DNA of 64,000 nt from Candidatus Babeliales bacterium (GTDB lineage Bacteria; Babelota; Babeliae; Babelales; JANWKD01): NCBI GenBank assembly GCA_963762115.1, contig CAVXJH010000006.1:224001-288000 (forward strand), given 5' to 3'. A program made the position numbers and the translations under genes. The first letter of the stretch is position 1. Each line of letters opens with the position of its first letter. Below, piece after piece: positions 26,950 to 41,100 of the stretch. Under the pieces are notes generated by a model, which saw only the letters and a list, made by a program, of their open reading frames with translations, was not told the origin of the DNA and did not search any database.

Positions 26950-29418
26950 ATGACAGCATCGTCTATCAAAAAAATTAACTCTACAACGGTATTATTTATT
27001 TCTTGTGCTTTTTTCTTGGTACAATCTACCTTTTTGTTTGCAATGCAACCAACAGAAGAATTGTCTCAAGATGTTGAGCAGAATGAGGTTTTTGATGATG
27101 ATATTTCTATTATCAAGCAACGACGAATTCATGATATTATTGTTGAAGGTAACCATCATGTGAGCACTGAAGCAATTTTTAATAAGATTCCTTATCATAA
27201 GGGTGAGATATTTTCTCCGTTGAAATCTAGATCACTTATTAATAATGTGATGCAATTAGGTTATTTTAAAAATGTACAAATCTTTGGCAAGAACGTTGAT
27301 GATGGTATTGATTTGTATGTTGTCGTTGTTGAAAAAAAACTATTAAAAGAGGTTATTTTTAAAGGTAATAAACACTTAACCGAAAAAGAAATTACCGCCA
27401 AAATTCCCTTTGCTGATATTCCGGCCTTGGATGAATCAGATTTAAAAAAATATTGTATCGCGATAAAAAAACTGTATCGAGATAAAGATTATCATCAGGC
27501 AACTGTTGAAGCTACTCTTGAAGATCATGATGAAAAAGTTACCGCGATCTTTACTATTAATGAACAAAAGAAAACAGCAGTAAAGCGCGTATTTTTTGAA
27601 GGCAATAAGGCTTTTGATAGCAAAAAATTACGCAGTATAATTTTCACTCGTGAAGATTGGGCTTTTGGTTTCTTAGATCGAGCGGGAAGTTATCAACCTG
27701 AAGCAATTGAATCAGATAAACATGTGTTAGAAAATTTTTATCAAAGTAATGGTTATCTTAATGCAAAAGTGACTAAAGTTGACATTGTTCCTGATGAAGA
27801 TCCTCATTATGTACAAGTTACTTTTCATATTGATGAAGGCGATCTTTATACGCTGAGTTCAATAACGGTGCAAGGCAATGACGCTGTTTCAGAAGAACAA
27901 ATTCTTGTGCGTTTGCCCATTGCTGTTGGCGATCTCTATTCAAAAGATAAAATACGGCAAGCAATTGAAACAATCAGATTAATCTTGGGCGAGTTTGGTT
28001 ATATTTATGCCGATGTTGAGCCATCAATTGAGCCCGATGATGAAAATAAAACAGTAAGTTTGTCTTTCTTTACTGAGTTAGGTGATAAAGTCTTTTTGGA
28101 AAGAATTAAGATTATTGGTAATGAAAAAACGCGCGATAAAGTAATTCGTCGTCAGTTACTCTTTGATGAAGGCGATTTATTAACTACGCAAAAACTTGAA
28201 GAATCAAAGACGCGTGTTGAAAATCTTGGTTTCTTTGATCAACAAGGTGGTGTCAGCTGGAAATATGACCGTACAACAAAGGATTCTGCCGATTTAAAAC
28301 TCTATGTTAAAGAAATCAAAACAGGAAGACTTGATGCACAAGTTGGGTTTGGTGGTTCGCCAAAAGATTTACAAAATCCAACTGAATCATTAAGAGTTGG
28401 AGGATCTCTTTCTGATACTAATCTTTTTGGTCTTGGTATCGGCTTTAATTTAAGTGGTGAAATTTCCAAACAAGAGCGTCAATTACTCTTTAATATAACT
28501 GAACCGTGGCTTTTCGATCGACCAATTTATGCAGCGTTTGATGTTGCATTCAAAAAATCTGTCTACGATGATTTTCAGTTGACCAAAGATGAAGTTAAAG
28601 AGCAACTTGCAAGCGGATCATTAAGTTTAGGTTTTGTTGCAGCAAGTTTAAATCAAACAAGATTTGTGTGCCAAGCTGGCTACGAAGGATTGCATTATAA
28701 AAAGCAACCTGTTGCTGATCTTGGTGCCAATGCTGACCCTAAAGAACAGGCAGAATTTCAACGAATTTTAGATAAGCGTTTCCCACAAGGTAATTTTCCA
28801 TGGCTTGGTAGTCAGGCAGCACAAGATTTTAGAAATCATCCATTGCATCCAAGTCGTGGGTATCAGTGGCAAGTTACGACCAGAATTGGTATTCCCAATG
28901 ATGCATTTGGTTTTTGGAAATTTGATTGTGATGCAAGTTATTATACACCAATTATAGGTGAACGAGATTTAGTGTTTTATCTTCACTCACATTTTGGTTG
29001 GGTAACTGCTTTTATGGATAAATTAATTCCATTCAGAGAGTTGTATCATATTGGTGGTCCGTCAAGTGTGCGCGGCTTCCTGTTTGGTGAAATAGGGCCA
29101 ACATTCAAAGGTGTTGATTCAATTGGTGGTAAAAAAGCATTTTGGTTAAATGCTGAACTTATCTTTCCTGTAGCGCCAGATTTTTCGATAAAAGGTGTTC
29201 TTTTCTATGATGGTGGTGCGGGATGGGATACGCCCGACGCAGATCAAATTGCAAAAAAACGACTCAAGAATAATCATTTTAGTTATAGGCATTCAGTTGG
29301 GTTTGGTGTGCGTATTTATCGTCCAACACCTATTCGTATTGATTGGGGTTTTAAGCTTGATCGTAGAAAAGGTGAGAAAGCGAGTGAAGTTCACTTAAGT
29401 TCTTCCTATGATTTCTAA
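26950..29418 (+). CDS. bamA: Outer membrane protein assembly factor BamA
   Basis: POTRA repeats (GNEKTRDKVIRRQL), SVRGF motif and C-terminal Phe. Confidence 0.95.
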   Translation: MTASSIKKINSTTVLFISCAFFLVQSTFLFAMQPTEELSQDVEQNEVFDDDISIIKQRRIHDIIVEGNHHVSTEAIFNKIPYHKGEIFSPLKSRSLINNVMQLGYFKNVQIFGKNVDDGIDLYVVVVEKKLLKEVIFKGNKHLTEKEITAKIPFADIPALDESDLKKYCIAIKKLYRDKDYHQATVEATLEDHDEKVTAIFTINEQKKTAVKRVFFEGNKAFDSKKLRSIIFTREDWAFGFLDRAGSYQPEAIESDKHVLENFYQSNGYLNAKVTKVDIVPDEDPHYVQVTFHIDEGDLYTLSSITVQGNDAVSEEQILVRLPIAVGDLYSKDKIRQAIETIRLILGEFGYIYADVEPSIEPDDENKTVSLSFFTELGDKVFLERIKIIGNEKTRDKVIRRQLLFDEGDLLTTQKLEESKTRVENLGFFDQQGGVSWKYDRTTKDSADLKLYVKEIKTGRLDAQVGFGGSPKDLQNPTESLRVGGSLSDTNLFGLGIGFNLSGEISKQERQLLFNITEPWLFDRPIYAAFDVAFKKSVYDDFQLTKDEVKEQLASGSLSLGFVAASLNQTRFVCQAGYEGLHYKKQPVADLGANADPKEQAEFQRILDKRFPQGNFPWLGSQAAQDFRNHPLHPSRGYQWQVTTRIGIPNDAFGFWKFDCDASYYTPIIGERDLVFYLHSHFGWVTAFMDKLIPFRELYHIGGPSSVRGFLFGEIGPTFKGVDSIGGKKAFWLNAELIFPVAPDFSIKGVLFYDGGAGWDTPDADQIAKKRLKNNHFSYRHSVGFGVRIYRPTPIRIDWGFKLDRRKGEKASEVHLSSSYDF

Positions 29419-29981
29419 AGATAAAGTAATTCTAAAGTGAATTTGATGAGTAGGAACACGTGAAGTAAAAAATATTTTCATGAGAAAAAAAGCATTAATA
29501 ACAGAAATGTCATTGCTGTATGTGTTCAGAGTTTCGGTGAATAATTTTTTACACAAAGTGGCAATCAAAGTTGAATTGTAAGTTTTTTAATTCCTTAAAC
29601 GGGTATGCCGGTTTCTTTCAACAATTCGGATGGTACTTTGCCATTCAAACCTTGATGCGGCCGATGTTCATTGTGATAGAAATTATATCCAAGAACAGCA
29701 TCTTTTAATTCATCGATTGTGTTAAAGATGGATCCTTCAATAACTTCATCATCAAAAGAACGCCAAAATCTTTCAATTTTTCCATTTGTTTGTGGTCTAT
29801 AAGGCAAAGTTCTTCGATGTTTAATCGCAAAATGAAGTAGCAATCGTTCAAAAGGATGATTTTTTAATTTTTCTGGCGTTGAACAAAACTCAGCACCATT
29901 ATCTGTCAGAGCTTCATCAAAGGTGATATTATATCGTTGGTTCATATGTAAAATAATATCCATCATAGTGATTGTGTTAAA

Positions 29982-29987
29982 AGTCAA
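29982..29987 (-). promoter_or_regulatory. -35 box TTGACT in the IS110 right end; pairs with -10 TATGTT (31175-31170) at 17-bp spacing only in the excised circle
   Basis: Circle junction reads TTGACT-TTTAACACAATCACTTG-TATGTT. Confidence 0.8.
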
Positions 29988-30013
29988 ATATTTTTTAATA
30001 AAGCTAAACAATA

Positions 30014-30955
30014 TTAAGCTTTACATAATTCACCTTTTTTTAGTAAAGAATTAGCAATCACAATAAGTTTATGCATAATAGCTACGATAGCTATTTTAAA
30101 AGGTTTTTTAGAAGTTATTAAACGATCGTAAAGTTCCTTTAATGGGAGATGATATTTAATAGTTGTTAATGCACACATATAAAGCATATTTCTTGGAATA
30201 GTTCTTCCACCTCTGATGAATTTTTTACCCTTATAACTTCCACTTTCATTCTCATAAGGACAAACACCAATGAGTGCTGATACTTTTTTATTACTTATTT
30301 GACCAAGTTCAGGAACGAATGATAATAATGTTGCAGCTGAAGTTTTGCCTATTCCTGGAATTGACTCCAAAATTTTTGATTTTGTATTTAATTTTTCATC
30401 TTGCTGAATTAAATCTTGTATCTTTAAATCAATTGATTTGATTTCGCACTCTAAGATTTTGATAAATTTCTTTATACTTGATGCATATAATGCATGAGAT
30501 GGATGTTTAGATCTTGTTTTTTCGGCAACTAAAAATTTTACCAAGTCATTTTTACGATTGACCAAAGCTTGTAATTTTTCTTGATTTTCGCTTTTGTTCA
30601 TTATCTCATAATCAGGAGAATTTTTAGAAGCAAATTCAGCAATTTTTCGAGCATCAATTTTATCCGTTTTGCTTTTGCAGCCACTAGCAACAATATAGCC
30701 TTTTATTCTTCTTGGATCGATGATCCAAAGATAATAACAATTTTTTTTTAATATTCGAGCAAGTAATTTTTCATACCCACCAGTTGCTTCGCATGCAATT
30801 TGTTCGATATCATATTTAACTAATTCTTTAATGATCTCCGTTATTCCAACTTCTGAGTTTGATACTTTTAAAGATTTTCCTATTGGATGGATATAAACAT
30901 CTAAAGTGTTTTTTGAAATATCGACACCTATAAATACTTTTGATATATTTTTCAT
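30014..30955 (-). CDS. IS110-family DEDD recombinase/transposase, intact, 313 aa
   Basis: IGVDISK, CEATG and KTDKID (DEDD); SIPGIG; catalytic Ser in NESGS. Confidence 0.96.
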   Translation of the reverse strand: MKNISKVFIGVDISKNTLDVYIHPIGKSLKVSNSEVGITEIIKELVKYDIEQIACEATGGYEKLLARILKKNCYYLWIIDPRRIKGYIVASGCKSKTDKIDARKIAEFASKNSPDYEIMNKSENQEKLQALVNRKNDLVKFLVAEKTRSKHPSHALYASSIKKFIKILECEIKSIDLKIQDLIQQDEKLNTKSKILESIPGIGKTSAATLLSFVPELGQISNKKVSALIGVCPYENESGSYKGKKFIRGGRTIPRNMLYMCALTTIKYHLPLKELYDRLITSKKPFKIAIVAIMHKLIVIANSLLKKGELCKA

Positions 30956-30960
30956 AAATA

Positions 30961-31163
30961 CCTCTGGCTTGTAGACATGCGAGATCGTATGTACTTGATA
31001 CGTCTCTAGTGATTGTTCGAGGTCATTTTTGTATAAGCTGATAGTCTCAAACTATGACACGGTCCTTTGAGACCAAGCTTGACACGAGATCTATCAGCTT
31101 CTCAAACAATTAATTTCAAAACAACTGATCATAAATTAACAAAATTTAGCTTTAAAATCATTT
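30961..31163 (-). ncRNA. Bridge RNA of the IS110 element (target-binding loop 31100-31035, donor-binding loop 31022-30961); 5' end inferred from the promoter
   Basis: Two stem/internal-loop/stem domains; loop sequences ACAATCACT and TACAAG match the donor junction, and TCATAG matches the target flank. Confidence 0.88.
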
Positions 31164-32131
31164 TGATTTAACATACAAGCAAAGGCAACATCAATTGCCT
31201 TTAAAGATTCAATTACTTCGACCCAAACTATTCTCGAAAAATCATCAATTACACCCAATACAAAATATTTCTTTTTAGGTTCAGATTGTACAATTCCCTT
31301 AGGTAGGTAATGGCAATCTATATGAGCTAATGATCCTGCAAATGTTCTCACAATCTTTCTTTTTTCCTCTTGCACTAATTTAGTTAATTTAGAAACACCA
31401 TATTTTCGTAAAGTTCGATACACTGAACTTGCAGAAAAACCCTTTTTAATCAAAGGATTTTTTTTGAGGGCCGCAGCGATAACATACCTATTTAAACCTG
31501 ATTTTCGGTATTCCAAAATTTTTTTTACAAGGCTATCATCTGCAAGTGGAAGTTCCTCAAATTTAGGTTTAGGACCACGCCTTATAGGCAGTAGAAGTTC
31601 GGGAATTCCCTGGGCCGCTTTATAGCGCCCATAAAGTTTATAAAAATTCTGGAAACAGAGCTCCCTGGCTTCAAAAAATTCTCGAACAAACCTAAATTGT
31701 GGATGCTTTTTTGCCTTAACAAGCTCATATTCTTCTACATATTTTAGCATGTACTTTATTGAATTACTAACCAAAGTAGGATACGATGTATTTATACTCA
31801 CAAAAGAACTCCTGTGTTAAAATTGTTAATATTTGCGTATTCTAATTCTAACTCTGATTTACTTTTGTGGGTATTTTTTTATTCACCGAAATTATGAACT
31901 TTTACAATTGCGAGCCAACATTGTTGGCGTGGCAACCCAGCATATAAAATGCTATTAATTTTTTCCTATAAAGTGAATTAAAAAATATTTGTTAATGTAA
32001 TAATTTTTTTAGGATTTTATTAATAAGAACATTATAATCTGGATCCCCACGGCACAATGTGCCTCGGGAAGACATTTTGATTATTTTGTTATTTTGTAAA
32101 TCATTAGTTCTGGCATAATTAGTAATATTTT

Positions 32132-32815
32132 TTATCTTAATTGTGTTGTCGTGTAGTTCACATCTTTCAAATAGATTGGTAACAACTGTGTTGAGAATTC
32201 TTTTTTTTGAAGATGCGCATCAAATGTCATTTTTGCCAGTTGATGCAATGAAGCTTCTTCAATGAGAGGTTCTGGCATGTATGCTTTTGATCCAAATAAA
32301 GAGTGTATAGATTCATATGCCAGGTTGACGCCATTGCCTATGAATCGAATGGGGATGTTTTGATGGTCTTGTTGTAGTTTTTCAAGAAGATTATGTATAT
32401 TCGCACAACCATACATAGTTTCAATATTGGGTTGTTGTAGTGCATAATATACATCATTATTACACGCATTTAATAAAGCAATTGTTGTTGGCCAACGCTC
32501 ATCTTGATTTTCTTGTAACAGAGCTTCCAAGCTATTACAACCAAAGAGCGGTATTTTTGTTGCAAATGCTATACCATTCACGGTGGTGATTATGATGCGT
32601 AAGCTGGTAAATGGTCCTGGACCTTGGTTGACGCCAATAAAACTTATTTCTTGAATAGCAGTTGAATTTCTTTTTAATAATGTTTGTATAGTTGGAATTA
32701 GCGTTTTGCTGGCATCCTTTTTATCATGTATCTCATGATCAATACAATGTAATTCGTTAAAGAGACCAACTTCATAATTTTGATAGCGTGCTTGAACTAC
32801 TAAAAAAGTCTGCAT
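32132..32815 (-). CDS. tsaB: tRNA t6A biosynthesis protein TsaB
   Basis: GVNQGPGPFTSLRI and C-terminal LLPIYLK. Confidence 0.9.
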   Translation of the reverse strand: MQTFLVVQARYQNYEVGLFNELHCIDHEIHDKKDASKTLIPTIQTLLKRNSTAIQEISFIGVNQGPGPFTSLRIIITTVNGIAFATKIPLFGCNSLEALLQENQDERWPTTIALLNACNNDVYYALQQPNIETMYGCANIHNLLEKLQQDHQNIPIRFIGNGVNLAYESIHSLFGSKAYMPEPLIEEASLHQLAKMTFDAHLQKKEFSTQLLPIYLKDVNYTTTQLR

Positions 32816-32818
32816 ATA

Positions 32819-32998
32819 TTAATTTTTGTTCTTACATTTTTGTTGTTGATAAAAAATACTAAAGGCGTCGTATTCAATTGTTTTTTCTTTCTTAGCTATT
32901 ACTTTACCACAATTTAAGCATTTCCAGCCATCAAAATTTAAGAAATGATCGAAAAAAGATTGCAGCACCATGAGGCCTGAACATTTTTTACACTTCAT
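32819..32998 (-). CDS. 59-aa zinc-ribbon protein, absent from the ORF track
   Basis: MKCKKCSGLMV...GWKCLNCGK; AAAGGA SD; stop lies 3 bp before the tsaB start. Confidence 0.8.
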   Translation of the reverse strand: MKCKKCSGLMVLQSFFDHFLNFDGWKCLNCGKVIAKKEKTIEYDAFSIFYQQQKCKNKN

Positions 32999-33288
32999 AC
33001 GATCCTTTCTTCTTCCTTTTTTATCAATCTAAGCAAGCAATGGTAGTCATGTCAATAGTTATATAGATGTAATTAAAAAAATATTTTTTAGAGTAAAAAT
33101 AGGACAAGAGAGACTTCTTGTGTTATGTCAACGCTGCCTTTGCAAATAAATTGGATGGAAACTATTACTTTATTTTATTTTGGTTGGAAGGCTGTTTTAT
33201 TATTTTTTATAAATAACTTCTCTTTTGTTTTATGAGTTGTTTAGTATTGGTAAAATCAAAACAATTTTATAGAGGTAAAAAGGAAATT

Positions 33289-35421
33289 ATGAAAATAAAG
33301 AAATTAATTTTTTTATATTTTGTATTCGTAGCTAAAATTATGGCTGAATCTCATGAAGCCCGTATTGATAATTATGCCCAAGAGTCTTTGATGACTTTTT
33401 TTGAATATATATTTGATCATGAGGAAGAAAAAAATACTGAATTTTTTGATTCATTAACCAGATGTTATGATCAATTAAAAAAAGGCAATCAATCATTATG
33501 CATTGGAGATTTATTGATAGCCTCGCCATTATTGATCGCCTATTGCGATGAATATATTGTAGGTGAAAGTTATAAAAGTGTTAGTTGTGATATAGGTCCA
33601 ATCATTCTCTTGCTTAATGCTTTGAAAGCACAAATAAATCAACTTGGTCAAGATCAATTTAATTGTTGTCAACTCTTGCAATCTGATTTTCAAGAAACTT
33701 TCAGCATCTTATTTGAAGTGACTCAAAGTTTTTCTACTTTTGATGCAACCGTTGCTCTTCTGGTTGATACAATTGCAACATTAACAAATAGTATTACATC
33801 ATTTACCGGTATTCCATTGAGTATTGCAGTGTTACAAGATACTGTTGAAATGTGTTGTGATACTATTAATAGTGAATTTCAACAAACATGGACTATCCTT
33901 GGTAATACATTAAATGTGGTGAATAACTGTTGTAATTCAATTTCAAATGATTTTAATGGAACATGGACTTTTTTAAATGCAGAATTTAATCAAGTGTTTA
34001 ACATGCTTTCAACAGTAACTCTAGAAGAACTTTGTCAACCAACAGCAATCATAGCGCCCACTACTATTATATTGCCAGGTTCTTATTGTCTCGCAACTAA
34101 TATTACCGGTACCATTATTATAAATGCAAATGATGTCGTTCTTGATCTTAATAATCATACAATATTTAACGGCCAGATTATTATAAGTGGTAAAAATAAT
34201 AGTATTGTTTGCAATGGTATTTTAGATAATGCCACAACGGGTTCTTGTGCAATTTCAATAACGAACTGTTCAAATGTTATTCTTGATGCTCTCATGGTTA
34301 TAAATCCCAATGATGGTATTCAATGTGGCCAATCAACAAATATTGTTATAAAAAATTGTATTATTAGTGGTGCTCAGAAAAATGGTCTTACTATCATTAA
34401 TACTTCAACGGCATTACGCATTGAAGATTTTGAAATTATTAATACTACTTCAAATGCCATTTATATTAATGCTAATGTTCAAGATTTAACGTTACAAAAT
34501 GGGCATATAAAATTTAGTAATGGTATTCGTGCAGAAACAGGATTTTCTGCAAACAATATAAAATGCATTGATATTTTTGTAGAAGGTACCCCTATTACAC
34601 TTTTTCCTATGAATTTTTTGGGAACTTCAAGTAATTTCTTTTTTTATAATGTTCAAATAGCTGATGCCGGCCAAGGTATGCAATTTAATAATATTTCTCA
34701 AAGTTTATTTCAGAATTGTGTGGTAAAAAATATTTCAACGCCCGCATCATCTGCTGGCAGTGCATTCCGTATTGATAATGGTGTAAATAATAAATTTGAT
34801 AATTGTGTTGTGTTGTCTATGACAACAACTGGAAGCACAACTCTTGATGCTTTTAAAATGACCAATGTTAATAATCTGATTTTCAAGGAATGTTCAGTTG
34901 AAGGTATAAATGGGGTTAACGGTGTTGTAAATGGTTTTAGTAGTAATAATTCACAACGAATAACAATGCAAGATTGTGTTGTGCACAATATAACAACGAG
35001 CACACAAGCAGACGGATTTCATCTGCAGGCAACAAGTAATGTTATCATGACTGATTGTGTTGCTAATGGGTGCAGTTCAAATGGTTATTTTTCTAGTGGA
35101 GGTGCAAATATAACGGTATCAAACTGTATAGCTAATAATTGCTTGGCAGATGGATTTCATTCAGCATCTACAACAAATGTTCTCTATGAATATTGTTATA
35201 GCAACAATAATACCGGAGTTGGTTTTAATGTTGCGAATGCAATTTGTGGTAATTGTGAAAGTAGTAGAAATGTTGGTTTTGGATTTAATGGTAATTCAAG
35301 TTCGATCGCTTATAATTGTTTTGCTGGGTTAAATATTACCGGTGCCTATACGGCGATGACAGATTCTGTGCAAGCATTAGATGCTGGTTCTCCAAAGGTT
35401 GGTTATAGTATTTCGGCGTAA
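33289..35421 (+). CDS. Secreted Cys-rich coiled-coil plus right-handed beta-helix protein
   Basis: AGGA SD before ATG at 33289; CC..INSEFQQTWTIL repeats; PGSYCLATNI..VVLDLNNHTI beta-helix start. Confidence 0.85.
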   Translation: MKIKKLIFLYFVFVAKIMAESHEARIDNYAQESLMTFFEYIFDHEEEKNTEFFDSLTRCYDQLKKGNQSLCIGDLLIASPLLIAYCDEYIVGESYKSVSCDIGPIILLLNALKAQINQLGQDQFNCCQLLQSDFQETFSILFEVTQSFSTFDATVALLVDTIATLTNSITSFTGIPLSIAVLQDTVEMCCDTINSEFQQTWTILGNTLNVVNNCCNSISNDFNGTWTFLNAEFNQVFNMLSTVTLEELCQPTAIIAPTTIILPGSYCLATNITGTIIINANDVVLDLNNHTIFNGQIIISGKNNSIVCNGILDNATTGSCAISITNCSNVILDALMVINPNDGIQCGQSTNIVIKNCIISGAQKNGLTIINTSTALRIEDFEIINTTSNAIYINANVQDLTLQNGHIKFSNGIRAETGFSANNIKCIDIFVEGTPITLFPMNFLGTSSNFFFYNVQIADAGQGMQFNNISQSLFQNCVVKNISTPASSAGSAFRIDNGVNNKFDNCVVLSMTTTGSTTLDAFKMTNVNNLIFKECSVEGINGVNGVVNGFSSNNSQRITMQDCVVHNITTSTQADGFHLQATSNVIMTDCVANGCSSNGYFSSGGANITVSNCIANNCLADGFHSASTTNVLYEYCYSNNNTGVGFNVANAICGNCESSRNVGFGFNGNSSSIAYNCFAGLNITGAYTAMTDSVQALDAGSPKVGYSISA

Positions 35422-35427
35422 TTAAGT

Positions 35428-35474
35428 TTAAAGGCAACAAAAAAATTATAAAATAACTTTTTTGTTGCCTTTAA
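35428..35474. terminator. Bidirectional terminator between convergent beta-helix genes
   Basis: TTAAAGGCAACAAAAAA / TTTTTTGTTGCCTTTAA inverted repeat. Confidence 0.75.
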
Positions 35475-35484
35475 GGGTTAAAAA

Positions 35485-36762
35485 TTAATTAGCAACTATT
35501 GCAACATTAAAATATTGGCTCGTGTTTGTTAATGTTGAAAAATTATTATTGGAAGCAAAGTTAACAGGAAACTCTCCTTGAGTGAATGATACAGAATATC
35601 CTGTTGTGGTATTATTATATGATAAGTTATTAGTCATAAGATTATTGGTATTAAGTGTGGTATCAACTAATCCATATCCTTGTGAGCCGAGATTACTTGT
35701 AAAGGTGTTATTGCTAATAAGAAATCCTTGTGCTCCATCAAGAAGAACTCCATAAGCAATTCCATTGGTAAAGTTTGCAATGTTTGCTGCGCAAATATTA
35801 TTGGTAATGCCAAAATTTGAATTAGTATCTGCAAAATAAAATCCTGCAGCTAAGATGCCACCCATATTATTGGCAGTCATGCAATATTCAAAAATATTAT
35901 TGAAATTATTATGAGAATTAAATCCAATGCCACTGCCAATAGCATTTGAATTATCAAGTGCTTTGCATGATGAAAATAATGATGCTGAACATGAATTTAT
36001 TAAAAAACCACATGATGTTGCTGTTATAATCATTGAATTTGCGTTATTACCATTTGCATTACAGGCTATGAATGAACAACCGTTCGAATTCATGGCTGAT
36101 ATACCTACTCCTACTATGTTGCCCCCATTGTCATATGATTTGCAGTTATTGAATTCACAACTAGAGCATGATTCAATATATATGCCATAACCAGCATCGG
36201 CTGAATAGGTTTTATTATTACTAAAAGTGCAATTTGCTATAGTGGTATTATAGGTTGCTATCATGCGCAGTCCATATGCATTATTCATGTTAATGCCCGT
36301 ACAAGAACTGACAAGGCAATTTATAATGGATACATCATTAATTCCTGATCCGATAGGATTGCCATCTAACAATATTCCAGCTTGATTACAATTCATTATT
36401 GATAAATTTTCTAAATAAATTTGTGAACATCCGTCACTGACATAAACACCTATTCCAGTAAGATTTGTTATGGTACCAGTTCTCACCGTAACGTTAGTTA
36501 AATTAGGAGCAATAAAAACCCCATTTAATCCCGGCATAAAATTTGTTGAATTTTGGGTAAGGATAAACTCATTGATATCAAAAATAACGTTACTTGCTGT
36601 AATAGTAACAATGGTATCATTTGGGGCTTGAGGATCAGCAATAATAGACCCTCCTAAAGGGAATACTCCAGAAGAATCAATAAGGGTAACAGTGGCATTG
36701 TTTAAAAAAAATAAACTAAGCATTGCTATAAAAAATAAAAAATGTTTTTTTTGAATGTTCAT
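35485..36762 (-). CDS. Secreted right-handed beta-helix (pectin-lyase-like) protein
   Basis: Signal peptide; Asn/Cys-rich G-[FI]...C....N repeats; paralog of 36845. Confidence 0.85.
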   Translation of the reverse strand: MNIQKKHFLFFIAMLSLFFLNNATVTLIDSSGVFPLGGSIIADPQAPNDTIVTITASNVIFDINEFILTQNSTNFMPGLNGVFIAPNLTNVTVRTGTITNLTGIGVYVSDGCSQIYLENLSIMNCNQAGILLDGNPIGSGINDVSIINCLVSSCTGINMNNAYGLRMIATYNTTIANCTFSNNKTYSADAGYGIYIESCSSCEFNNCKSYDNGGNIVGVGISAMNSNGCSFIACNANGNNANSMIITATSCGFLINSCSASLFSSCKALDNSNAIGSGIGFNSHNNFNNIFEYCMTANNMGGILAAGFYFADTNSNFGITNNICAANIANFTNGIAYGVLLDGAQGFLISNNTFTSNLGSQGYGLVDTTLNTNNLMTNNLSYNNTTTGYSVSFTQGEFPVNFASNNNFSTLTNTSQYFNVAIVAN

Positions 36763-36777
36763 ATTTTTTCCTTCTTT

Positions 36778-36815
36778 AAAAAAAGAATCGCAACAATGGT
36801 GCGATTCTTTTTTTT
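36778..36815 (-). terminator. Intrinsic terminator between the 36845 and 35485 genes
   Basis: AAAAAAAGAATCGCA-N7-TGCGATTCTTTTTTT. Confidence 0.75.
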
Positions 36816-36844
36816 GATAGTGATCATCTAAGAAAATATAGTTG

Positions 36845-38098
36845 TTATGATGTAAAATTTATGTTTGTATATTGATTTACTGTTGTTGGAAAGTCATAAA
36901 CAAAAGAAGTAACAACAGGAAATGTGCCGGTAACACGGGTAACTTGATAACCAGTTGTTGTGTTGCTAAATGAAATAGTGCCGGCAATCAAATTGGTGGT
37001 ATCAATTACTGTATCAGTCAATCCTACACCTACTAATCCAGTATTATTCGATATATTATTGTATAAAATATCGCAATTTTGTGCTGTATCAAGTAAAATA
37101 CCATACCCAGTTCCCGATGCACCACCATTATTGACACTGCTTTGGCATTTTATTAATGATGAAGAAGATTCATTATTATTTAATAAGAATCCTGCTGCAA
37201 TTGTGCCACCAATATTTTGATTTGACTCACAGATATTAAATATATTGTCGAATCCGTTGGTTGCTTGAAAGCCATATCCTTGTGCAAGAACATTATTATT
37301 ATGTTTGCTGATACAGTTATTAATTGTTGTGTGGCTGCTTGTATCAATTAAAAATCCTATTGCACGGGCAGTGCTACTTGATCTGCTGATATTATTAAGA
37401 GCAATACAATTTTCAATAATAGACCATTGTGAATTATAAATATTTATACCGACGCCTAAAGTGTTACCGCCATTGGCATTTATTTCACAATTGGTAAATC
37501 GACAAGTTGTGCACCATTCAGTACTTATACCATAGCCACTATTAGCTGTTCCTGCATCATTTCTATCAAAAGTACTATTTTGAATATCAAAATTATCACA
37601 ATAAATTAGTCGTAATCCATAAGCGGGATCACCATTTGCGCCTGTGCATGAATAAATTAAGCAATTATTTATTGAACCATCCTGAATAATGCTTGCTATG
37701 TTGCCATTAAAAAGGATTCCTGTTGCATTACAACCGATGACATTTATATTTTCAAGAGTAATATTGGTGCATCCCGCTCCTACGATAATTCCTAGGCCTG
37801 TCATTCCTTGAATTGTACCATTTCTAATAGTGATATTCGATAATCCAGGACTTACAGTAATGCCGGTAAAACCGGGAATTGGATCACTTGGGTCTTGTAA
37901 AATATTAAAGCCTCCAAAATCAAGAATTACATCACCTGATTGTATACAATATCCTGAATCATCTGGATCAGTTGGATCAAAAAGAACATCGCCACCAGGT
38001 GAGATCATTCCTGGAGAGTTAATAATAGTGCAAATTGATGTAGTGTTTATATAGTTCATTATTAGTAATAATGGTATAAGTAATATAGTTTTTTTCAT
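36845..38098 (-). CDS. Secreted right-handed beta-helix protein
   Basis: AAGGAG SD before ATG at 38098; VILDFGGFNI, ITIRNGTI and Cys/Asn ladder. Confidence 0.85.
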   Translation of the reverse strand: MKKTILLIPLLLIMNYINTTSICTIINSPGMISPGGDVLFDPTDPDDSGYCIQSGDVILDFGGFNILQDPSDPIPGFTGITVSPGLSNITIRNGTIQGMTGLGIIVGAGCTNITLENINVIGCNATGILFNGNIASIIQDGSINNCLIYSCTGANGDPAYGLRLIYCDNFDIQNSTFDRNDAGTANSGYGISTEWCTTCRFTNCEINANGGNTLGVGINIYNSQWSIIENCIALNNISRSSSTARAIGFLIDTSSHTTINNCISKHNNNVLAQGYGFQATNGFDNIFNICESNQNIGGTIAAGFLLNNNESSSSLIKCQSSVNNGGASGTGYGILLDTAQNCDILYNNISNNTGLVGVGLTDTVIDTTNLIAGTISFSNTTTGYQVTRVTGTFPVVTSFVYDFPTTVNQYTNINFTS

Positions 38099-38139
38099 TA
38101 TTCTCCTTAAAATTAAGATGATCACTATCATTTTTATTT

Positions 38140-41100
38140 TTAACTTCCTGCTGCTATATTGGTCCATGCTCCTGTTACAGCAGCTATATTTGAACTTGCC
38201 GGCGCTGTTGGCGTTGTAACAGAGCCTCCTGGTACGCCGGACATTTGATTTGCCGGTGTTGATCCATTACTCCAAGCAATATTTTTAGTAAATAAATTAT
38301 TCGATCCCGTGTTAACAAGAACACCAAAGGAGTTAGCAGCGCTTACTCCTATGTTATTGCTAAAGTTACATTCTTTAATTTCACAACGGAACCCACCACC
38401 AGGAGATACAAGGTTTAATCCGGCTGCAAGGCCACCTGCTCCAGTTGCGCTGTTATTTGCCGATACGCATCGCAATATTAAACAGGTACTGGTACCATTA
38501 AGAGCAAACCCTAAACAGGTAGTTGGGCCGGAATTAGCACTTGAAATACAATCGATAAACATATTATTGAAGTTGGTAGAGGTTGTTCCGGAAACATTAA
38601 ATCCATTACATATTCCACTTGTTACTCCGCCGGCATTCCAACTAACAATGCATCCCATAAACATATTATTGGTTGATGCTCCCTGAATTAAAAATCCGTT
38701 TAACGTTGCGGCATTAGGAGCATTATTTTGTAGAACTTTACAACTATTGAACATATTATTTGTGCAAGCATTTATATTGATACCACTTAAAACTGTCCCT
38801 GATGTATTGGTGCCTGAATTTCCCTCTATAATGCAATTGGAGAACATATTAAGGCTGGACGTTGTAATAAGTTGTATGCCATTGAGTGTTAAACCAATAT
38901 TATCGTATATGTTTATATCTCTAAATGTACATTCTGTGGAGCTATTTAAGTTGAGTACTGAAATTGCGTTGGTGTTGACGCCATTATTTTTAATATTGCA
39001 ACTATAGACACTACAATCGTGGCATTGAAGCAGATATACGGGGAAGTCGGCATTAACTCCTTGAGAGCAATATAATATATTACAGTTAGCGATTTCGGAA
39101 TTTAGTATTTGCCCAGCTCCTGCAGTACCGAGTAATTCTATTGCTCGCGTTGCACAAAATAAAATATCAATATTTTGAATGCTAATTCTATTACAGCCAA
39201 ATTGTATTGATACGCCTGCTCTTGTGAAGCTTTCAATCATACCATTTTTTATGGTTATATCGGTTAGCCCATTGTTAACACCTATTCCATTAACATTTGC
39301 TGTTGTATTTCCTTGGCTGATGGTGAAACATTGTAAGTCTAAAACAACGCCGGTTGTGGTAATAAGAATTGCTGTGCTGGTTGCAAGTGGACTAAAGACA
39401 ATATTGCTACCAAGTTTGTAGACGCCAGATGTTGAAATAACATAGGTAGTTCCTCCCGCTGCACCAAAATTAGCTTGTGTAATCATAGTTGGATTACATA
39501 AATTTTGCGTTATTACATTTAACACGCTGAAGGTTCCATTGAACCCAGCTGCTTCAATAGTCCACGTTTGTTGAAATTCATTATTAATGTTATTGCAGCA
39601 TGCATTAAGTGCTGAGAAGGTACCCTGATTGTTTATGCTAAGTGCGTTTAGCGCGGAGAAAGTGCCGTTAAAGCCTGCACCTAATATTGTCCATGTTTGA
39701 TTGAAATCAGTTGAGAGTGTTGCTTTTAGATCAGTAATCACACTATAAGAGAATGCATTTGTAGTGAGTGAACTGAAAGTTCCATTAAAACCTGCACCTA
39801 ATATTGTCCAGGTCTGAGCGAAATCATTCGTCATAGTATTTTTTAGATCGCTGATCACACTATATGAAAATGCATTTGCAGTTAATGAGCTGAAGGTGCC
39901 ATTGAAACCGGCAGCTAAGATTGACCATGTTTGTTGGAACTCAGAATTAATATTTGTGCAGCAGGCGTTTAATGCACTGAATGTTCCATTAAATCCTGCT
40001 CCTAAGATAGTCCACGTCTGAGCAAAATCATTCGTCATAGTATTTTTTAAATCACTGATCACACTGTAAGAAAAGTTACTTGCTGTGAGTAAACTAAATG
40101 TGCCGTTGAAACCAGCAGCTAGAATTGACCATGTTTGTTGGAACTCACTATTAATGTTTATGCAGCAGGCATTCAATGCTGAGAATGTTCCATTAAATCC
40201 TGCTCCTAAGATAGTCCACGTCTGAGCGAAATCATTAGTAATTGTATTTTTTAGATCAGCAATTGCTGAGAAAGTTCCATTTGCTTCGGTATTAATATTG
40301 TTAATTGCAGAGAAAGTACCATTAAATCCAGCACCAAGAATTGACCAGGTTTGCTGAAACTCAGAATTAATATTGGTGCAGCAGACATTCAATGCTGAGA
40401 ATGTTCCATTAAATCCTGCTCCTAAGATTGTCCATGTCTGAGCGAAATCATTGGTCATTGTATTTTTTAGATCACTGATCACACTGTAAGAGAAATTATT
40501 TGAAGTTATTGAACTAAACGTGCCATTAAATCCTGCACCTAAGATTGACCATGTTTGTTGGAATTCAGAATTTATGTTTGTGCAACATGCATTGAGTGCA
40601 CTAAAGGTGCCATTGAATCCTGCACCTAAGATTGTCCACGTCTGAGCAAAATCATTCGTTATAGTATTTTTTAGATCGCTGATCACGCTATAAGAGAAGT
40701 TACTTGCTGTAAGTAAACTAAATGTTCCATTGAAACCAGCGCCTAGAATTGTCCACGTTTGTTGGAATTCAGAATTGATGTTGGTGCAACATGCATCAAG
40801 TGCACTGAAGGTGCCGTTGAATCCTGCTCCTAAGATTGTCCAGGTCTGAGCAAAATCATTCGTTATCGTATTTTTCAGATCAGCAATAACGCTATAAGAG
40901 AAATTATTTGAAGTTATTGAACTAAACGTGCCATTAAATCCTGCACCTAAGATTGACCATGTTTGTTGGAATTCAGAATTGATGTTAGTGCAACATACAT
41001 CAAGTGCACTGAAAGTTCCATTAAATCCTGCAGCAACTGCTGAGAAAGTACCTGATAAATCAGCATCTAATTCTGCAATTGCACTGAATGTGCCATTGAA

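Follow-up and report, generated by a model that had tools for sequence, protein, structure and literature searches.

Recombination guided by a bridge RNA has been described for IS621, an IS110 element of E. coli (PDB 8wt6; PMC11208160, PMC11208158). As far as the accessible text of these papers goes, IS621 joins a DEDD+Ser recombinase to a two-loop RNA encoded in its left end, recombines around a CT core, has a promoter at the junction of its ends and uses handshake bases, a concept that we take from PMC11208158. It targets intergenic GC-rich repeats (144 of 173 sites, PMC11208160), and its guides match their targets imperfectly. ISCro4, or IS622 (PDB 9t56; 10.1101/2025.05.14.653916), has the same architecture and is active in human cells. 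The available part of that report also describes the mining of IS110 orthologs by covariance model, with 72 screened in human cells and 18 found active by junction PCR. ISPpu10 (10.64898/2026.03.19.712850) is described, in the text at hand, as targeting a repeat with a 5′ stem-loop through a strict right guide and a left guide that is tolerant distally and strict beside the core. A study of half-match recombination by IS621 (10.64898/2026.08.31.748434), cited here from a partial text, reports that one arm plus the core suffices in vitro, including on a right-target-only substrate. Since the right guide of IS621 is only 4 bp, the study excluded such right-target-only sites from the classes that it scored in vivo. 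Natural expanded elements, too, are reported to show one-sided matches, in their case of the donor arms (10.64898/2026.08.14.744561).

In the window, by which we mean the whole stretch of 64,000 nucleotides that was analysed, we found an IS110 element that resembles IS621 in each of these respects, several of them, the junction promoter included, as predictions (Table 1). It differs from IS621 in its distant protein, in a right guide that measures 7 nt with the core as against 4, and in its repeat family and host group; whereas ISCro4 is active in human cells, the window element is known from its sequence alone. Our reading, to which we give a probability of about 0.9, is that this is an intact IS621-type IS110 whose predicted bridge RNA likely guides it to a GC-rich intergenic repeat, filled by four of its five copies, and that the fifth copy, in an IS481-like gene, is likely a half-match off-target. 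The system is one more ortholog of an IS110 family that has already been mined in bulk. Our literature search returned no IS110 report for Dependentiae and, among the matches listed, none for related names; the supplementary IS110 tables of Durrant et al. may contain the group.

Table 1. Features of the IS110 locus, in coordinates of the window; RNA domains and guides are predictions.
Feature	Position	Strand	Remarks
IS481-like element interrupted by IS110	29503..31906	minus	ORF halves 31801-31178 and 29966-29595; extent approximate, a few flanking bases included
IS110 (IS621-type) element	29967..31179	minus	CT core at both ends; 1211 bp with one core counted; ends set by 5 copies with different flanks and the empty allele
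Right end, 45 nt	29969..30013	minus	contains -35-like TTGACT at 29987-29982
Recombinase, 313 aa	30014..30955	minus	D12, E56, D98, D101, S238
Left non-coding end, 222 nt, predicted bridge RNA	30956..31177	minus	
Donor-binding domain	30961..31022	minus	helices 3 and 4: 98% and 95% of cells paired
Donor-loop handshake bases CC	30966..30967	minus	first complementary to target base -1 (G at window site and repeat); 31/32 elements
Right donor guide TACAAG	30968..30973	minus	complementary to core and first left-end bases
Left donor guide ACAATCACT	31008..31016	minus	identical to right-end terminus plus core (29975-29967)
Target-binding domain	31035..31100	minus	outer stem with bulge, internal loop, inner stem
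Target-loop handshake bases TT	31050..31051	minus	first complementary to donor base -1; Watson-Crick in 26/28 elements
Right target guide GTCATAG, core plus 5 nt	31052..31058	minus	5/5 paired, one wobble, at repeat and window site
Left target guide TGTCAAGCT	31076..31084	minus	non-core matches: 6/7 to repeat, 1/7 to window site
DNA hairpin ending at core, left flank	31180..31203	minus	10-pair stem

The genome (1.53 Mb, 7 contigs) contains five copies of the element, each of 1211 bp, three of them identical and two with one difference each, which supports recent mobility. A genome search showed CT at both ends in 5/5 copies. Insertion is scarless around a CT core common to donor and target, as observed directly against the exact empty site, which occurs three times in the genome. 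When a collection of genome contigs was searched for related loci with the recombinase protein alone, 1 locus was returned. A search of the genome for solo bridge RNAs and non-autonomous copies with model R1 gave the five copies and one weak match (23 bits, E 0.03); R1 recovers its own training sequences by construction and is not an independent IS110 model. The circle junction had no match in the genome assembly. Across the predicted junction, TTGACT and TATGTT (31175-31170) are separated by a 17-nt spacer, and both hexamers are kept in close homologs; we predict that they constitute a promoter.

Both a DEDD RuvC-like domain and a Transposase_20 domain are present in the recombinase, which scored 65.7 bits with PF01548 (cut-off 29), 56.4 bits with PF02371 (cut-off 21.3) and 190 bits with NF033542 (cut-off 140). 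Its only solved relatives are IS621 (E 1e-32) and ISCro4 (E 1.7e-32). The five residues listed in Table 1 align with the catalytic residues of IS621 named in the accessible text of PMC11208158, and all five are invariant in the 106 homologs that were aligned out of 120 listed. One homolog, P0030, named Dependentiae, is 70% identical to the recombinase; this and the small, AT-rich genome suggest that the organism probably belongs to Dependentiae (Babelota). The initial annotation, made from the window before this analysis, had called the protein compact at 313 aa, a description that we do not retain: the solved IS621 and ISCro4 chains have 328 and 341 residues, and 313–315 aa is usual among homologs. 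Its central claim, an intact IS621-type IS110 with a two-loop bridge RNA in the left end, was borne out by the agreement of protein domains, catalytic residues and stem and guide covariation. The accompanying proposal of a candidate programmable recombinase we judge plausible from the sequence.

The left end is predicted to encode the bridge RNA. All motifs that had been reported for it lie where they had been placed, including ACAATCACT, TACAAG and TCATAG (31057-31052), as do the 222-nt left end and the 313-aa ORF. TCATAG does match the right flank as claimed, but the right target guide is 7 nt long (31058-31052) and not 6. The arms of the outer target stem were located at 31100-31091 and 31044-31035, and the stem continues beyond an A bulge. 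In a folding check, the minimum-energy fold of 224 nt contained the target domain and missed the donor domain; the donor stems rest on covariation. In a MAFFT alignment of 45 sequences, not fitted to the structure, 91% of the stem cells were paired, compared with 33–42% in slid controls; 24 of the 33 stem pairs had changed on both sides, which 0 of 500 shuffles reached. Rfam gave no relevant match in 29000-33000 and no family for the left end.

For the guides, we collected 112 loci, 68 of which matched the protein at ≥34% identity. Structural anchors allowed the target domain to be parsed in 51 of these; the 17 unparsed loci were 16 distant ones (34–44% identity) and one partial match. Removal of 5 duplicates left 46 loci with 36 distinct target domains. 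Each element was given one vote, suspected register errors were retained, and the left flank of L008 was set by exact anchor. We found that identity between the right guide and its flank was 4.40/5 as against 2.17 when shuffled (27 elements, 17 distinct guides), and that between the left guide and its flank 4.15/7 as against 2.43 (28 elements). Neither value was reached in 20,000 permutations (0/20000 each), a figure that overstates independence because the homologs are related, with 17 distinct right guides that have a readable flank. By position, the left-guide match climbed from 0.23 at −7 to 0.93 at −1, and the right-guide match was 0.81–0.92 over +1 to +5 and 0.12–0.13 at +6 and +7. This profile indicates a right guide of 7 nt including the core, strict over 5 bases, and a left guide that is loose distally, in likeness to ISPpu10.

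On the donor side, the left donor guide matched the right-end terminus at 7/7 non-core positions in 28/28 elements, 6 of which carry a variant donor; the right donor guide matches the joined ends, with too little variation among homologs for covariation. The two target guides and the left donor guide thus covary with their sites across homologs, as the initial annotation had anticipated for a true bridge RNA. Both target-loop guides track the target flanks across the family and in four of the five genome copies, the exception being the left arm of the window copy. The group is useful as a clean set of natural data: its donor guide hardly varies, and its natural right guides, of which there are at least 17, each track their own target. 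Right fit was poor at a few homolog sites, namely L029 (1/5, probably a register error) and L095 (2/5), and a poor left match with a full right match was seen in other members of the group too (L110, 1/7 left; L094, 2/7 left).

Several individual homologs are worth recording here. At L095 the left flank fits the guide and the poorly fitting right flank repeats a stretch found upstream, a possible post-insertion rearrangement. L018 has the same left guide as the window element and a different right guide, which its flank tracks, and can be read as natural modular retargeting. A genome of the same genus (G001; L003, L009, L011, L013) holds two related IS110s that share their donor guide and differ in their target guides; three of the copies are in another repeat family, one at a fully left-matched site.

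The four copies other than that in the window share the flank TGGCAAG-CT-ATGGC within a GC-rich imperfect palindrome of ~50 bp, and all are located outside ORFs of ≥100 aa. The one wobble between the right arm of this repeat and the right guide is G:U. With the copies removed in silico, we found 16 matches to the left part of the repeat, of which two without core and repeat context were excluded, leaving 14 long-repeat copies. Those with the right arm ATGG are filled in 4/4 cases, whereas those with ACG, TCG, ACA or TCC arms are filled in 0/10 (Fisher p = 0.001), which amounts to an in-genome test of right-guide specificity. Judged by guides and flanks, the true target is likely this intergenic repeat rather than the window site, and the repeat would accordingly be the correct substrate for a bench test. 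A site matching both guides perfectly was sought in the genome and gave 0 matches. Ten of the 14 sites whose wobble-inclusive score equals that of the repeat are empty, and at 5 empty sites the left guide matches 5/7 with an equally good right arm. Since equal-scoring sites are empty, guide pairing alone does not pick sites, and selection or a further determinant must act.

Within the phylum, the empty repeat, searched as an exact 20-base pattern, was found in 13 of 261 genomes at 18 places, 2 of them ATGG. Empty ATGG variants occur in two other genomes of the phylum, both without a match to the recombinase group. That no empty ATGG long repeat remains in the genome, together with the 2/18 count, had suggested an RNA-templated conversion of the repeat to ATGG. 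We rejected this idea as unneeded, because ATG is present at the window site even in its empty allele, and empty ATGG repeats exist elsewhere. Rfam searches on the repeat in 8 loci returned nothing relevant. As a side observation, one repeat-borne copy directly adjoins a tmRNA gene (L012:2572-3027), and at L092 an element copy lies between tRNA genes.

Four DNA sequencing runs contain part of the stretch; among the runs listed, no RNA run contained it. In run X3, which comes from another study, a close relative, 90–99% alike by contig, lies beside the same repeat left arm. This relative has a one-base change in each target guide, and its right guide predicts ACG, so that it may have been retargeted to the ACG arm.

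In the window, the IS110 interrupts what had been annotated as a host ORF and is actually an IS481-like transposase with 3 intact copies elsewhere. As had been claimed, removing the element restores an open frame: with one CT kept it has 331 aa, 100% identical to the intact C5 copy and 98.5–99.1% identical to two intact copies on contig C3. An intact copy scored 163 bits with NF033577, by far its best family (E 8e-48); we call it only IS481-like because this is below the curated cut-off of 224. The initial annotation had also taken the window site for the guided target. This holds for the right guide, which pairs 5/5 with one wobble, but not for the left guide, which that annotation had left unmentioned and which pairs 1/7 outside the core, or 2 with wobble. 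Right arms as good as this occur at 785 of the 148953 CT sites of the genome (0.5%), and the site, GCCTTTG-CT-ATGAT, keeps G at −1. A full right arm, G at −1 and a left guide at 1/7 fit half-match recombination, and the window copy is likely a right-arm-only half-match, that is, an off-target insertion. It is readable as such because the right guide is longer than that of IS621, and it represents the kind of event that was beyond in vivo scoring in the half-match study. Because insertions in essential genes would be purged, a redundant IS is a favoured place for seeing an off-target copy. Literature searches on off-target, stem-loop and IS481 terms gave, among the matches listed, no report of such a case. 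We also considered a donor-like half match at this site and discarded it, as by eye 2/7 left and 2/5 right bases match the donor.

By analogy with IS621, as described in the accessible text of PMC11208160 and PMC11208158, the element would circularise, and its joined ends would form a sigma-70-type promoter expressing the RNA. A recombinase tetramer would bind the target and donor loops, cleave beside CT by a DEDD/Ser composite site and exchange strands with handshake pairing. The present analysis adds that the choice of repeat variant may be set by the right guide (core plus 5 nt) together with the base that precedes the core. When no matching repeat is left empty, the element might turn to a site that is dispensable, has the right base at −1 and pairs perfectly on its right arm. 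An order of repeats first and off-target later is not datable, because two of the four repeat-borne copies have exactly the sequence of the window copy.

A tentative addition to this explanation concerns the hairpin that ends at the core. In hairpin-assisted targeting, the right guide, the −1 base and a core-adjacent DNA stem-loop would jointly substitute for left-guide pairing, the stem-loop either being read by the recombinase or opening the DNA for it. The window hairpin has −6.5 kcal/mol (DNA parameters) and those of the four repeat sites −5.5 to −6.5. Equal stability was found at 4 of 144 empty G-CT-ATG[AG][CT] sites, 3 of which are the same IS481-like sequence (hence 1/141 others), at 5 of 780 other right-arm-matching sites and at 18 of 3000 random CT sites, and was reached by 2 of 2000 upstream shuffles. 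A target stem-loop also raises the activity of ISPpu10, according to the accessible text of 10.64898/2026.03.19.712850. However, the window hairpin is a single event, spotted post hoc, and by an expected-pairing measure the window site has p = 0.13, with p < 0.05 in only 3 of 31 homolog targets. The flank hairpin has a median of −0.55 kcal/mol over 38 homolog sites, and other sites with a poor left match lack a hairpin. These homolog flanks and the expected-pairing measure gave no support to the hairpin as a group-wide rule, which we rejected. In ISPpu10, moreover, recombination was lost with 10/11 stem inversions in which the left guide could no longer pair (same source), so the stem-loop could not replace the key left pairing there, whereas in the window the element inserted beside a hairpin at a site that hardly pairs with the left guide. 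Selection alone would also leave visible an insertion in a redundant IS. We consider hairpin assistance possible, but doubtful on this balance. If it were true, methods that predict the off-targets of bridge recombinases would need to treat the structure of the target DNA as something that can license insertion, beyond merely enhancing it.

A stronger form of this proposal would have the recombinase of the group read hairpin, core and 5-base right arm, the hairpin replacing left pairing altogether. The window copy would then be a structure-licensed half-match insertion made when no matching repeat was left, and drift of single guide bases would carry the element on to the next repeat variant. 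We think this unlikely, slightly more so than hairpin assistance itself.

Another reading, which we also find improbable, is that both guides engage the window site through a bulged or mismatched left pairing, in which case it would be a full match of poor quality rather than a half match. If one bulge is allowed, the left guide does gain 5/7 pairs there, and Durrant et al., in the part of their text available, describe insertions as tolerated in some off-targets. Against this, a gapped left score of ≥5 is ordinary: of the 144 empty sites that share this right arm, 58 reach it. It is highly improbable that the window copy arose as an artefact of assembly or as a recombination product of two IS110 copies: although none of the contigs listed for the best-matching run spans the element–IS481 junction, both flanks are contiguous in the empty allele and CT is exact at both ends, and run X1 (possibly the source sample), which contains the empty IS481-like junction and a repeat-flanked copy, has an element contig that stops 3 bases beyond the core, where window and repeat flanks diverge, and an IS481 contig that stops at the core, breaks that we read as expected with both junctions present.

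The surroundings of the IS481-like copies gave some further observations. In all four copies, those of the window, C5 and C3, the end lies immediately ahead of CAATGAC in a second repeat family, for which we found 64 matches to an 11-base motif with ≤1 mismatch. Their ends occur in two arrangements, one copy having the sequence of the other end on its left. In the window, a mobile element lies within a mobile element within a repeat. Two small GIY-YIG genes (L116:1434-1836 and L119:1395-1793) each lie between inverted copies of the second repeat, a layout that resembles the one described for Ssn nucleases and their motifs in the accessible text of PMC11893778. A link between the target repeat of the IS110 and GIY-YIG genes was considered and set aside, a pattern search having placed a related repeat near 1 of 6 such loci. 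Elsewhere in the window, positions 33232-38167 hold a run of large secreted-looking proteins (729, 425 and 440 aa), rich in N, C, I and S and of repeat character, which we presume to be beta-helix proteins.
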